NCBI GenBank assembly: GCA_038245785.1
Contig: JBBRSB010000017.1
Span: 28,302 to 92,301 of the forward strand
DNA length: 64,000 nt
Source: Gloeobacterales cyanobacterium
GTDB taxonomy: Bacteria > Cyanobacteriota > Cyanobacteriia > Gloeobacterales > PMM-0068
Direction: 5' to 3'
Position 1 is the stretch's first letter, and each line of letters begins with the position of its first letter. A program made the position numbers. Positions 51,001 through 54,000 of this stretch are shown here, one piece after another.

Positions 51001-54000
51001 GTTGCCTGCGCCATGTATGAGCTGTACATTGCCAATAAAAACTACTCGTCCTGGTCTTTGAGGCCATGGATATTAATGCGCGAACTTGAGATTCCCTTCA
51101 ATGAGCACGTAGTCCCTTTTGAGCAAGAGGGAAACTGGAAATCATTTCGGACTTTCTCGCCCACGGGCCTAGTACCCAGCTTGCATGATCTCGGTATTGT
51201 AGTCTGGGATTCTTTGGGCATCATCGAATATCTTGCAGAGCGTCATGACAGCGTATGGCCTGTAGCTCCCTCAGCACAGGCTTGGGCTCGTTGTGCATCG
51301 GCGGAAATGCACTCCGGTTTTGGTACGCTGCGTGCTCAGTGCTCTATTAACTGCGGAATTCGGGTTCGACTTAACGAAATTTCCCCAGCGCTACAGCGGG
51401 ATATCGACCGCATCAGCGAACTCTGGAATGAAGGACTTACACGCTTCGAGGGTCCTTTCCTTGCAGGTGAAACTTTTACAGCTGTCGATGCATTTTTTGC
51501 GCCTGTGGCATTCCGCATCCAGACCTATGGACTCATTCTGGACGAAGTTCCCGCCTCTTACGCCAAACGCCTATTAGCGCTACCGTCCATGCAAAGTTGG
51601 TACAATGACGCGCTTGCGGAACCTTGGCGAGAACCAGGCCATGAAGCCGAAGCCAAACAGGCAGGTACTTTGTTTGAAGACTTACGCACAGCGATTTCAT
51701 AACGAACTTGCAATCACATGTATCAAAAACGTAACGCACTTTACTGCTCATTCAAGATTGAGTCCAAGATTTCTGGTGTCAATCCTCGCTCTTGCGCCTT
51801 TTGGCTAATATCGCTCATCACTTCTTCTAAGGAATGAGCAATAATGCCTGCAAAAGGACCTTCTGCTTTTTCTACAGTTTTAATCGCTTCAGTCATCTCA
51901 AATCCACTCGTTTGTGTTCCTGCTGTTTGTCCATGGGCAGGAGCATCGAAGGCAAGGATACGATATCCCGATGCCACCAATGGTCCAACAAAAGAACCAA
52001 GCTGTGTCCCCCGTCCTCCCCATCCATGAATCAGTAAAATAGTCGGTCCCTTACTCCAAGAAAAAGCAGCCATTTCTACCGCATTGTAGGGAATGGAGAA
52101 AAGGTCCGCCTGTTCCAGAAGCGCTTGCTCTCTTTCTGGTAGCGATTTTCTGGACGGTGTTAGAAACAGGTCCAAAACTTGCTGGGTACTCATTGCATTC
52201 ATCGCTGAAGTTGAATTTTCCTGCCGATTCATCGCTGTTTTCTCATCTATTAGAGATCTAAACGTTCGTAATCTAAAGAATAGCAAACTGAACCGAAAGA
52301 TTGTCTATTGACACTAAGTACTTTGGTCTATTAGCCTTTAGGTTCACATGCAATAACTGCTTCTTTTCTCTTTAGCTTATGATGAAAAATTCAAGATTGT
52401 AGAAAACGAAAAGACTATAGTTGTCAACTTTTTATAATTCTTTAAATCTCTCCAGTAGAGTATTTAAGAGGTATAGATTGCATGTGAAATATTCAAAATC
52501 TTATCAGCCAATCAACTGGTTGTGTAAGCTAATACATTAAGAGGAGTAAGTTCTATGGATGAATCTAACTTGCCCAAAAAGAAGCAAGAAGAATCGGTTG
52601 CCAATATTAATCGGCGTAATCTTCTGACACGGATCGGTGTTGCGGGCTTAACTATCCCGGCTGTTGGCTATGCGGGAGTACATCTCAGAGCTCACTCTAA
52701 TCAAGTTGCCTCGAGCCTATCCCATGCAGGTCATTTTCAGCCACTTGCCAGCCCTAAAGAATTGGAACATATCAGTGTCGAAGGACCTGGTAATCCGGCG
52801 CTAGTTGTTCCCACCAAAAACTTTAAACCCTATCCCACTGCCCTCCAACCCGTGAGCCCCGATAAAGTCAAAACTATTGTGCAAGAAGTCCGCAGCGATA
52901 CAGTTGTTCAGGTAACGGAAGGCGTGAACTACCCCGGTTGGAGTCTGGATGGCAAGATTCCGGCTTCTGTGATTCGAGTGCGGGTGGGCGATACCGTCAA
53001 CTACACCCTAAAGAATCAAGCAGACCAAGGACATTCTATTGATTTTCATGCGGCCAATGCGCCCTGGGATAGAGCCTTTCACACCATCGCTCCTGGGAAA
53101 AAGTTCTCTATCTCCTGGAAACCTCAATATCCAGGAGTGTTCATGTACCATTGCGTCACGCCTCTGACGGTACAGCACGTAGCCAACGGCATGTATGGAA
53201 TGACGATTGTAGACCCGGAGGAACCGTTACCGCCCGCGCGTGAATATGCCATCGTCCAAAGCGAGTTCTACTACAAAAATGGAGCGATTGACTACGACGG
53301 CATGTCGGCGGGCACGCCCCAGTATGTTGTCTTCAATGGCACCGCCAACCAGTATCAGAATTATCCCCTGATTGCTAAAGCCGGTGAGCGGATACGGCTC
53401 TATGTCTTGAATGCTGGTCCCAATCTATGGAGTGCCTTCCATGTCATTGGCGCACTCTTTGATGTGGTCTATACCGAAGGGAATCCCCGCAATGCCACCT
53501 ACGGCCATCAGGTAGTCAATATTGCGCCTGCTGGAGGAGCGATCTGTGAAATGACACTGTATGAGCCAGGGCTCTATCCGCTGGTGACGCATTCCTTTGC
53601 TCATGCTTCCAAGGGAGCCGTAGGCATGCTCAAAGTGATTTAGCTTAGGCAGTATGAATGAGGCTCTTCAACTTGCTCAGCTTCCGGAGATGATAACGAT
53701 AATTCTGCCGATTGCTCTTTATTAGAACCGAAAGAATAGCCCATGGCATCTAAAGATTGTTTATTGTCTGCAGATTTTTATACCCTTATTATTCTCTTAA
53801 GTTGAGTCGTTTTCTGAACGTACTGCGTGGAGCTGGACAATCTAACAAATAATTGCATTGCCACCTCTAAAAGTATTTTCAGTTGCGAGACTTTGGACTG
53901 GAGTCTAATACAAACTCCCAACCCAGAGTCTCTGCTCAAGGCAATAGATGAGTTTCATCAACAGATTTAGTATCGTTCAACAACGGAGAAACACATGAGT

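Follow-up and report, generated by a model that had tools for sequence, protein, structure and literature searches.

The window, that is, the whole 64,000-nucleotide stretch of DNA that was analysed, comes from a draft genome (G000) of a Gloeobacterales cyanobacterium and carries a gene predicted to encode a copper nitrite reductase (nirK). The nirK open reading frame is genuine and intact. Its positions are given as window coordinates (contig equivalent, G000:C17:80856-81941), and the features of the locus are as follows:

50444..55495, no strand assigned: segment with a gene order that G013/G012 do not share (GFA, GST, truncated hydrolase, nirK, VCPO-like gene)
52287..52554, + strand: AT-rich intergenic region 5' of nirK, without a recognised regulator box
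52539-52546, + strand: Shine-Dalgarno-like AAGAGGAG, 8 nt 5' of the nirK ATG, read from the sequence
52555..53643, + strand: nirK coding sequence, a single ATG open reading frame of 362 codons plus stop
52555..52695, + strand: putative twin-arginine (Tat) signal peptide, residues 1-47, placed by motif position
52696..52818, + strand: linker between leader and core, residues 48-88, low AF2 confidence
52819..53640, + strand: two-cupredoxin catalytic core, residues 89-362

The region upstream of nirK (52287-52554) was scanned for regulatory sites. It contained no match to the NtcA box GTA-N8-TAC, none to an FNR/HcpR-type box (TTGAY-N4-RTCAA) with up to two mismatches, and no sigma-70-like promoter on the + strand. 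A consensus scan for promoters and terminators gave no signal above chance around the gene, and no inverted repeat of at least 8 bases within 20 bases was found in the nirK upstream regions. The window's upstream region aligns in part with those of G012 and G013, two genomes of the same genus. Conservation was only patchy when a shared operator was sought in the aligned upstream regions of the four nirK loci (G000, G013, G012 and the closed genome of another genus, G001). No RNA runs were listed with the window interval 52287-53700.

NirK is a well-understood enzyme family that is widely spread between phyla. A phmmer search of the PDB with the window protein matched 131 distinct sequences, led by 3wkq (E 3.6e-63, residues 89-361), which are the figures given in the genome-wide survey's note. 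The solved NirKs of Geobacillus (3.6e-63), Neisseria (AniA, 5e-56) and Nitrosomonas europaea (7.8e-49) align over their full length in a single stretch; Achromobacter/Alcaligenes-type entries (1nia, 2avf, 5akr) get no further than E values around 1e-20 to 1e-21, some of them split over two stretches. By this measure, the AniA, Geobacillus and Nitrosomonas enzymes are nearer to the window protein than the Achromobacter/Alcaligenes type, which places it in the subgroup that the survey's note terms class II. The predicted structure is consistent with the sequence matches. The AF2 model of the core is all-beta, with pLDDT mostly above 90, and its Foldseek matches, among those listed, are NirKs throughout, the Geobacillus enzymes first. 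The best match (3wia_A) has a TM score (target) of 0.89 and an rmsd of 1.5, and solved NirKs span TM scores of 0.80-0.90.

The copper sites are conserved as well. By analogy with the roles known in the family, H160, C200, H208 and M213 would ligate the type-1 copper and H165, H199 and H346 the type-2 copper; D163 and H296 would be catalytic, and I298 would lie over the type-2 site, where Ile or Val, together with the catalytic pair, distinguishes NirK from multicopper oxidases. In an alignment (A1) the residues fall in invariant columns. Among 109 NirK-clade rows, H160, C200 and H208 occur in every row and M213 in 107, and all 109 rows have the three type-2 ligands and both catalytic residues. 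At position 298, 54 rows have Ile and 55 have Val. Furthermore, the substitutions named in PDB titles (D98N, C135A and H294M) fall on D163, C200 and H346 by offset arithmetic on the phmmer alignment. The window protein thus has, judging from its sequence and modelled fold, all the parts of a complete two-domain NirK of the AniA/Geobacillus type, as the earlier note had proposed; the database search, fold and residue conservation bear this out.

The N-terminus of the protein suggests export. Residues 19-25 read NRRNLLT (RRNLL at 20-24), in line with the S/T-R-R-x-F-L-K-like Tat pattern, and are followed by a hydrophobic run and then by ...HLRAHS. The consensus of full-length homologues retains an RRxFL motif, and TatC was found in G000. 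These observations agree with the twin-arginine leader (RRNLL) that the survey had reported; a Tat-signal profile gave no match to the window protein at E<=0.01. The first cysteine does not occur before residue 200, so neither a lipobox nor a lipid anchor is expected. The enzyme is thus predicted to leave the cytoplasm via Tat as a soluble periplasmic protein, with a putative cleavage site. The N-terminal 82 residues lack a confident model (AF2 pLDDT below 50 at residues 22-82), and pN amounts to 0.177 over the first 100 codons versus 0.034 in the core.

The gene has a narrow distribution in the order. Among 14 Gloeobacterales genomes searched, full-length nirK was found in G000, G013 (87%) and G001 (69%), and G012 has a fragment (residues 8-107) at a contig end. 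Nine others carry only a distant paralogue (E 1.1e-23 to 8.6e-28) and one (G004) had no match. Within Gloeobacterales, only the window's genus and a second genus have NirK. In the phylum sample, 20 of 401 genomes matched at E<=1e-40; the other 19 all carry the label 'same phylum'. A word-indexed search returned relatives from the lineage at 85%, 83% and 73% identity, and everything else at 56% or less. The 73% match is, by its NCBI name, from Anthocerotibacter panamensis. These counts and identities, including the restriction within the order, the phylum figure and the Anthocerotibacter match, reproduce the earlier survey.

Trees of NirK recover the lineage more clearly than its origin. The lineage gene tree has the form (G001,(G000,G013...)) with support of 100/100, and a long stem joins the clade to a polytomy. 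FastTree, quick and careful trees differed on the clade's neighbour and supported none as donor lineage; the topology of the quick free search is not to be used, that search having missed a better tree. A joint clade of the window NirK with other cyanobacterial NirKs was not rejected (p-AU 0.31).

Oxygenic cyanobacteria are regarded as nitrite assimilators that use ferredoxin-dependent NirA to reduce nitrite to ammonium. The window's genome has NirA (772 bits; cut-off, 594) and also NirB (1098; 883) and NirD (121; 75), all above their profile cut-offs, so that NirK accompanies the two other nitrite reductases already listed in the earlier note. The enzymes for the next step are another matter. 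The sole NorB-like gene of G000 lies on a 3.4-kb contig (C93), adjoining a transposase-like fragment. The contig has 54.5% GC versus 47.9%, and its tetranucleotide distance is reached by 0.7% of background chunks. This atypical composition agrees with the caution already voiced about this qNor candidate. The closed genome G001 has one COX1-family gene only and no NO reductase. Searches for Hcp, truncated globin (Bac_globin) and RIC found none in G000, G013, G012 or G001. Because there is no secure NO reductase, we do not consider the organism a denitrifier.

The family resemblance suggests how the enzyme would work. The precursor would be exported folded through Tat and released into the periplasm in soluble form. 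Three copies would assemble there into a homotrimer with every type-2 copper between two subunits, H165 and H199 coming from one and H346 from its neighbour. Electrons would arrive at the type-1 copper (H160, C200, H208, M213) and travel along the C200-H199 bridge to the type-2 site, where nitrite, placed by D163, H296 and I298, would be converted to NO. Small carriers of the periplasm are the likely donors; plastocyanin-like and cytochrome c6-like candidates are present in the genome (three PF00127 and three PF13442 matches, one of the latter above the family cut-off). The trimeric state, the donor and the nitrite-reducing activity itself are all predicted by homology.

The physiological role is the weakest step of the explanation. 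The gene very probably encodes a functional NirK (EC 1.7.2.1) similar to those of Neisseria and Geobacillus that has long resided in the Sivonenia/Anthocerotibacter branch of Gloeobacterales. We favor a role in which nitrite would serve as an auxiliary electron sink, or would simply be removed, in mats and sediments that are dark or hypoxic. NO would be lost to the community or processed by further enzymes. Habitats of the genus include lake sediments, peat and mats, according to the accessible part of PMC10438808. In cyanobacteria that lack thylakoids, cytochrome c6 and plastocyanin operate in the periplasm, so the donors would share this compartment with the photosynthetic and respiratory chain. 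On a more ambitious reading, which we consider unlikely, the exported NirK, lying in this same compartment, could take its electrons directly from the chain and so open a nitrite-to-NO branch to an oxygenic phototroph, as an electron sink for low light or dark hypoxia. On this reading NirK might even go far back in the phylum, with loss from most oxygenic lineages, and not be a late import, since the joint cyanobacterial clade was not rejected (p-AU 0.31).

A genuine NirK could also have a non-respiratory role in nitrite detoxification or NO signaling, wired to nitrogen assimilation. We regard this as a reasonable possibility with somewhat less than even chances. The gene would be induced when nitrite builds up, as might happen in the dark if ferredoxin-NirA is limited; NO would be a signal or simply be released. 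The gene neighborhood in G001 speaks for such a role and, on the favored reading as well, links nirK to nitrite metabolism. There, nirK is divergent from a gene for an Rrf2-family regulator, with nirA and a LysR regulator gene about 3 kb away, and the absence of an NO reductase from this closed genome points in the same direction. Furthermore, many non-denitrifiers carry NirK, as stated in the accessible part of PMC10999283, and the available portion of PMC1274295 describes control of nirK by the Rrf2-family protein NsrR in the nitrifier Nitrosomonas and in Neisseria. However, nirA is near nirK in only one of four genomes, and making NO without a recognised detoxifier would be an odd strategy. 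The G001 regulator also reaches only the superfamily cut-off (119 versus 73 bits); with 67 bits on the NsrR model (cut-off, 182), its scores identify it as an Rrf2-family member that is not assignable to NsrR. It has no orthologue in G000 (best match, 31%). No conserved nirK neighbours were found within +/-10 kb among G000, G013, G012 and G001.

A very improbable reading is that the protein is a two-domain multicopper oxidase and not a nitrite reductase. Names and models invite it: the Anthocerotibacter orthologue is called 'multicopper oxidase domain-containing protein' by NCBI, the Pfam domains of the window protein are the generic Cu-oxidase_2, Cu-oxidase_3 and Cu-oxidase, and the equivalog model TIGR02376 (Cu_nitrite_red) scores the window protein at 171.6 bits and the G001 orthologue at 156.9, below its curated cut-off of 296.3. 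This shortfall, to which we attribute the generic NCBI name, says something about one model rather than about the enzyme family. JGI calls the close homologues nitrite reductase (NO-forming). Nitrite reductases make up all of the 38 best PDB sequences; a deposit described only as a multicopper oxidase (3gdc) first appears at 2.4e-21.

The paralogue in the same order shows what such an oxidase looks like. The G000 copy (G000:C5:67022-67744; locus L002, with others at L006-L011) has 338 aa, two cupredoxin domains and 24-30% identity to NirK. It retains the His and Cys type-1 ligands and has histidines at the positions aligned with those of the type-2 site. However, all seven Gloeobacterales paralogues have His at position 163, His at 298 and Leu at 213, whereas the window protein agrees with the 109 NirK-clade rows. 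The replacement of the catalytic Asp163 and of Ile298 by His makes the paralogue a different enzyme, and in the careful tree a branch of 2.5 changes per column separates it from NirK. It probably belongs to the related family that served as outgroup for NirK in Pold et al. 2024, as far as the accessible part of the paper (PMC10999283) describes it. The survey's statement that the remaining Gloeobacterales have the distant paralogue alone was confirmed for nine genomes, G004 having none. The oxidase reading is thus close to refuted.

The gene is native to the cyanobacterial genome. This follows from its typical composition (69% of background chunks are more distant than the 3.4-kb chunk with nirK), a contig from an independent assembly, the presence of an orthologue in a closed genome, flank-like divergence and a low dN/dS. 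The independent contig (run X1, 16.7 kb) spans 48000-58000 with 0 differences and flat depth; X1 may be the source sample, in which case only the assembler is independent. Record 25 of X4 links nirK to the VCPO-like gene, and runs X2 to X4 at 80% likeness gave only small shares, in short contigs of relatives. The orthologue of G001 lies in a one-contig genome of 4.19 Mb. DNA identity of nirK is 80% to G013 and 72% to G001, similar to the flanking genes (80-83% and 67-70%). The gene is under purifying selection, with a dN/dS against G013 of 0.057 overall and 0.027 in the core. The flanks (47635-50443 and from 55496/55820 onward) match G013/G012 contigs at 79-83%, and nirK itself matches a third contig. 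That the gene entered the bin or the assembly as a contaminant, from some Chloroflexota-like organism sharing the sample, is hardly credible and close to refuted: the draft has 255 contigs and an estimated contamination of 1.42%, the nearest named relatives of NirK outside the lineage are Chloroflexota MAGs and the gene order at nirK is unlike that of the sister genomes, but the gene sits in a 92-kb contig whose flanks are 80-83% identical to same-genus genomes, its composition and assembly are as described, orthologues occur in two more same-genus genomes and in the closed genome of the other genus, and the protein is at most 56% identical to any sequence outside the lineage.

The survey's note had also described the NO-forming step as one not known to its author from oxygenic cyanobacteria; taken as a claim of no precedent, this goes too far. 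A class-level sample of 401 genomes has NirK in two of the 387 outside Gloeobacterales (G176 and G095), both with PSII reaction-centre genes. The G176 protein (L163:9760-11502; G095 copy, L013) scores 338.2 bits on TIGR02376, above the cut-off of 296.3. Its gene lies in the order CRP/FNR regulator - qNor - RIC - NirK - FocA/NirC. qNor alone turns up fairly often in the class (in 43 of the 401 genomes sampled). NirK is thus rare among oxygenic cyanobacteria and not unique to the Gloeobacterales lineage. A literature search returned no account of an oxygenic cyanobacterium with a NirK gene of its own, though the gene-presence tables of PMC10438808 could list nirK. The words 'Cyanobacteria', 'Gloeobacter' and 'Anthocerotibacter' are absent from the supplementary text of Pold et al., whose main sequence tables possibly lie outside those files, so that their data set may already include cyanobacterial NirKs that have drawn no comment. 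The gap in the literature is genuine, though the gene class is already present in public cyanobacterial genomes.

The Gloeobacterales are the deepest-branching, thylakoid-less order of cyanobacteria, to which a periplasmic NO-forming enzyme would bring a dissimilatory nitrogen-oxide step. Carriers could then supply NO and, via neighbours, N2O in cold sediments, peat and mats. The NirK idea is directly testable because one carrier lineage, by its NCBI protein name Anthocerotibacter panamensis, is available in culture. For annotation, the NCBI model TIGR02376 overlooks the window's clade, and NirK plus qNor clusters occur, undiscussed, in other oxygenic cyanobacteria.

The closest known enzymes by sequence and structure are the NirKs of Geobacillus thermodenitrificans and G. 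kaustophilus (3WKQ, 3WIA, 3WI9, 4ZK8; 40-42% identity). They share the two-cupredoxin core with the window protein, and copper ligands and catalytic Asp and His align. Their hosts are Gram-positive thermophiles, and they have about 16 residues of insertions missing from the window protein, which has 3 extra. Unlike them, the window protein has a putative twin-arginine leader and about 40 unmodelled residues at the N-terminus.

AniA of Neisseria gonorrhoeae (1KBV, 5TB7, 5UE6) belongs to the same subgroup (E 5e-56 over 82-361; 39% identity in the structural alignment). AniA is a lipoprotein. It was deposited as a major outer membrane protein, whereas the window protein has no Cys in the region before residue 200. 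Neisseria pairs AniA with NorB; the window's genome has no secure NorB. The Rrf2 gene next to nirK in G001 has a parallel in the Rrf2-family control of nirK/aniA described in the available portion of PMC1274295.

The NirK of Nitrosomonas europaea (4KNS) is more distant (E 7.8e-49; 37% identity; TM to target, 0.87) and comes from a different clade. Its host is no classical denitrifier, and its deposit is named 'multicopper oxidase', like the Anthocerotibacter orthologue. It is encoded in an operon under the repressor NsrR, according to the same portion of PMC1274295, whereas the window nirK lacks conserved partners.

The comparison within the phylum is with the G176/G095 enzymes. They carry an N-terminal cupredoxin domain, are only 37-40% identical to the window NirK and group with Paenibacillus (91/88, careful tree) and not with the window's clade. 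The G176 gene clusters with those of a CRP/FNR regulator, qNor, RIC/ScdA, a FocA/NirC channel and CopD, which the window nirK does not. Like the window NirK, they come from cyanobacteria and keep all the diagnostic residues.

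The genome-wide survey's note had claimed an NO-forming copper nitrite reductase (NirK) in the window, and this observation was borne out: the ORF was found and the search figures were recovered almost digit for digit. The position given for it counts along the window. The gene is a single ATG ORF in a 5.0-Mb draft genome (G000; 255 contigs, 98.2% completeness, 1.4% contamination), with AAGAGGAG read 8 nt upstream of the ATG.

51741-52286, minus strand: alpha/beta-hydrolase fragment, 181 aa, upstream of nirK
52555..53643, plus strand: nirK, 362 residues (G000:C17:80856-81941)
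53995-55374, plus strand: vanadium-dependent haloperoxidase-like gene, downstream of nirK

Pfam assigned the protein generic multicopper-oxidase domains only. Its top NCBIfam model was the one for copper-containing nitrite reductase, TIGR02376, with a score of 171.6 bits that falls under the 296.3 cut-off, which explains the generic NCBI name; close homologues are already labelled nitrite reductase (NO-forming) by JGI. The top ones of 131 phmmer matches to PDB sequences were all NirK, led by the Geobacillus enzyme (3.6e-63, residues 89-361). Neisseria AniA scored 5e-56, Nitrosomonas europaea 7.8e-49 and the Achromobacter/Alcaligenes-type enzymes about 1e-20. H160, D163, H165, H199, C200, H208, H296 and H346 were invariant in a 27-homologue alignment and M213 was nearly so. 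We take H160, C200, H208 and M213 to be the type-1 ligands, H165, H199 and H346 the type-2 ligands, and D163 and H296 the catalytic Asp and His. By offset arithmetic on the phmmer alignment, the Geobacillus mutants named in PDB titles (D98N, C135A, H294M) correspond to D163, C200 and H346. The AlphaFold2 model had pLDDT >90 across most of residues 90-362 and <50 for residues 1-82. All Foldseek matches listed for this model were NirK, Geobacillus enzymes first (best 3wia_A: TM to target 0.89, rmsd 1.5). The tested residues and the modelled fold make it a member of the NirK family.

The survey had also split NirK from a two-domain multicopper oxidase paralogue of Gloeobacterales. We aligned the cores of 116 sequences: 7 paralogues and 109 NirK-clade rows (3 Gloeobacterales, 2 other Cyanobacteriia, 24 non-photosynthetic Cyanobacteriota and 80 named genomes), omitting two weaker, secondary ORFs (loci L046 and L086) and the fragment from G012, which was too short. 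The eight invariant residues were kept in 109/109 NirK-clade rows and Met213 in 107, and position 298 was Ile (54) or Val (55). All 7 paralogues carried His163, His298 and Leu213; the separation is therefore correct. The contrast is that of a mononuclear type-2 nitrite site versus a multicopper oxidase's extra histidines. It agrees with Pold et al. (2024), who state that multicopper oxidases of cyanobacteria are the outgroup of NirK and have different catalytic-site motifs.

Several observations indicate that nirK is native. In tetranucleotide composition, 69% of 3.4-kb background chunks were farther from the genome mean than the 3.4-kb stretch around the gene, which has 51.0% GC (genome, 47.9%). 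The window's flanks were 79-83% identical in DNA to other contigs of two same-genus (Sivonenia) genomes, G013 and G012, and 67-70% to G001, from another Gloeobacterales genus. For nirK the identities were alike (80% to G013, 72% to G001), so the gene diverged in step with the genome. An independently assembled 16.7-kb contig from run X1 covers 48000-58000 with 0 differences; X1 may be the source sample, and the independence is that of the assembler only. One contig of about 90% likeness from another study (X4) joins the nirK 3' end to the downstream gene. Furthermore, G001 is one contig of 4,187,797 bases and carries a full-length orthologue. The typical composition, matching flanks, independent assembly and single-contig orthologue make contamination very unlikely. 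Gene decay is equally improbable at a dN/dS of 0.057 between G000 and G013 (core, 0.027); synonymous sites were saturated between G000 and G001.

The neighbours of nirK differ across all four genomes. Upstream in the window, the hydrolase ORF matches only the first 50-75 positions of 217- and 245-position profiles, as would be expected of a gene cut short where the variable segment begins or ends. The haloperoxidase-like gene (Pfam VCPO_N, PAP2 and VCPO_2nd; 0.97 in atlas clusters) follows with no terminator-like site in between, and the two are also adjacent on the X4 contig already mentioned (record 25), from a relative at about 90% identity. We also noted DsbD/CcdA-type membrane thiol-reductant transporters on either side of the region (44887-46147, minus strand; 56862-57581, plus strand), one paired with a thioredoxin-like redoxin; these are genes for maintaining the redox state of the periplasm and maturing cytochrome c, and have no obvious nirK link. 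The nirK neighbours are a Mo-nitrogenase C-terminal-domain gene and a CHASE2 protein in G013, fumarase in G012, and in G001 the following genes within about 5 kb.

L118:4626-9267 (G001:C1, about 4170625-4175266), directly upstream of nirK: nirA, LysR-type regulator, glycosyltransferase-3 family gene, and Rrf2-family regulator divergent from nirK

In both Nitrosomonas and Neisseria, nirK is regulated by Rrf2 repressors of the NsrR type (PMC1274295). By analogy, Rrf2 control is a good lead for G001, where the protein clears the superfamily model only. The regulator has no orthologue in G000, and the lead does not extend to the window. Scans around the window's nirK for NtcA and FNR-type boxes, promoter consensus sequences and terminators gave nothing conspicuous.

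Residues 19-25 of the protein read NRRNLLT; next come a stretch of moderate hydrophobicity and HLRAHS. RRxFL is present in the consensus of full-length homologues. The first cysteine does not occur before residue 200, hence there is no lipobox. Tat-signal profiles in the Pfam and NCBIfam searches did not match the protein; TatC was found in G000. From the leader's sequence we infer, on good grounds, export through Tat. Sivonenia and other Gloeobacterales are described as lacking thylakoids (PMC10438808), so Tat export would mean the periplasm. Possible electron donors are plastocyanin-like proteins (3 PF00127 matches in G000) and cytochrome c6-like proteins (3 PF13442 matches, 1 above the family cut-off in a 124-aa cytochrome c6-sized frame). 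A direct link between NirK and photosynthetic carriers of the periplasm would, if real in these thylakoid-less cells, make the finding important.

NirK in three genome samples
Order, 14 genomes: full-length 3, fragment 1, paralogue only 9, nothing 1
Class, 401 genomes: 5 matches at E<=1e-40 (G000, G013, G001, G176, G095)
Phylum, 401 genomes: 20 matches, the 19 others spread over five families outside the class

Outside Gloeobacterales, the class sample had NirK in 2/387 genomes (G176 and G095). PSII reaction-centre genes were present in all five NirK-bearing class members and in none of five non-class carriers picked from four of the five families. Oxygenic cyanobacteria therefore seldom carry NirK; it is commoner in their non-photosynthetic relatives, and its oxygenic range is wider than the Sivonenia/Anthocerotibacter lineage. 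As a side observation, a PSII reaction-centre (Photo_RC) gene of G000 (C6:76425-77325) appears to fall into two adjacent pieces (profile 1-117 and 118-258) with a TAA reported inside one match; either a disrupted psbA/psbD copy or a draft frameshift could account for this.

L163:6998-15875 (G176:C15, about 15998-24874; 58-kb contig): CRP/FNR-type regulator, qNor, RIC/ScdA di-iron protein, cupredoxin-fused NirK, FocA/NirC nitrite channel, small ORF, CopD-like protein, in this order
L013:1050-2298 (G095:C709; 2.3-kb contig): NirK

The G176 genome is 99% complete and has PSII genes. Its NirK (338 bits) is above the TIGR02376 cut-off and its qNor combines COX1 with a NorB cytochrome-c-like domain. 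Taken together, these genes look like one coherent module that would carry nitrite to N2O in an oxygenic cyanobacterium. The G095 contig is too short for sure assignment to that genome; NirK there adjoins a small ORF for an exported cupredoxin-like protein and the terminal part of a P-type ATPase gene. Our literature search found no paper on any cyanobacterial NirK or on the G176 cluster; a Nostoc paper states, for its strain, that nir, nor and nos are absent (PMC13033781).

Outside the lineage, NirK identity did not exceed 56%, and the named matches were Chloroflexota MAG proteins. In a FastTree phylogeny of 116 rows, the three Gloeobacterales sequences formed a clade (100) with a stem of 0.47 and no close sister. 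An IQ-TREE analysis (LG+C20+F+G4 by PMSF, lnL -23133.2) of 63 of these rows, dense clades thinned by hand, plus 22 unnamed proteins from among the best placed the window's clade (5 rows, 100/100, stem 0.49) in a polytomy. Other cyanobacterial NirKs fell in three clades, paired with a Gemmatimonadaceae sequence (97/99), Betaproteobacteria (100/99) and Paenibacillus (91/88). Constraining the window's clade with the 9-row G176/G095 clade cost 12.7 log-likelihood units and was not rejected (p-AU 0.31); compared with an inferior tree from a quick search, it scored 16.7 units higher (p-AU 0.69). Because this group was chosen after the tree was seen and both stems are long, the outcome means no more than that the data do not discriminate. 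We conclude that nirK is old in the Sivonenia/Anthocerotibacter branch, its source being either transfer or descent within the phylum; an ancient cyanobacterial origin would, if true, likewise make the finding important. A preprint places both genera in one family (10.1101/2025.11.10.686926). If the family ancestor had nirK, then G002, G003 and G004 (three genera, 91-95% complete) lost the gene or it was missed.

COX1-family genes numbered one each in G001, G013 and G012 and two in G000.

G000:C93:1-3432 (L133; 3.4-kb contig): second COX1-family gene, qNor-type, 778 aa, NorB cytochrome-c-like domain plus COX1

This contig has 54.5% GC, only 0.7% of background chunks are equally atypical, and the gene abuts a weak DDE-transposase-like fragment. 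The qNor is about 42% identical to those of 42 other genomes in the class sample and was found in 0/13 other Gloeobacterales; contamination or acquisition on a mobile element may explain its presence. Searches of G000, G013, G012 and G001 detected neither Hcp nor truncated globin nor RIC (for NnrS, the search control was silent). With no secure NO-removal gene, the lineage would, on the NirK reading, make NO without a recognised removal route, which argues against classical denitrification. Across the class sample, qNor-type genes occurred in 43/401 genomes versus 5/401 for NirK, so NO reduction without NO formation is the commoner state. The main rival for the role of NirK is signalling or detoxification, tied to assimilation. 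We favor a role as auxiliary electron sink, or else in removing nitrite, which would operate in dark, hypoxic sediments and mats, habitats reported for Sivonenia (PMC10438808). A second nitrite reductase varies in the genus: G000 encodes NADH-type NirB (C3:204874-207408, L143; 1098 bits, cut-off 883) with NirD alongside, G012 has both by domain match (G012:C256), and PF01077 found no NirB in G013 or G001.

The closest known relatives of the window's NirK are the Geobacillus, AniA and Nitrosomonas enzymes. Unlike these, it has a putative Tat leader and an unmodelled linker, and lacks a lipid anchor and partner genes. It is an enzyme of a familiar type, in a host where it was not expected.
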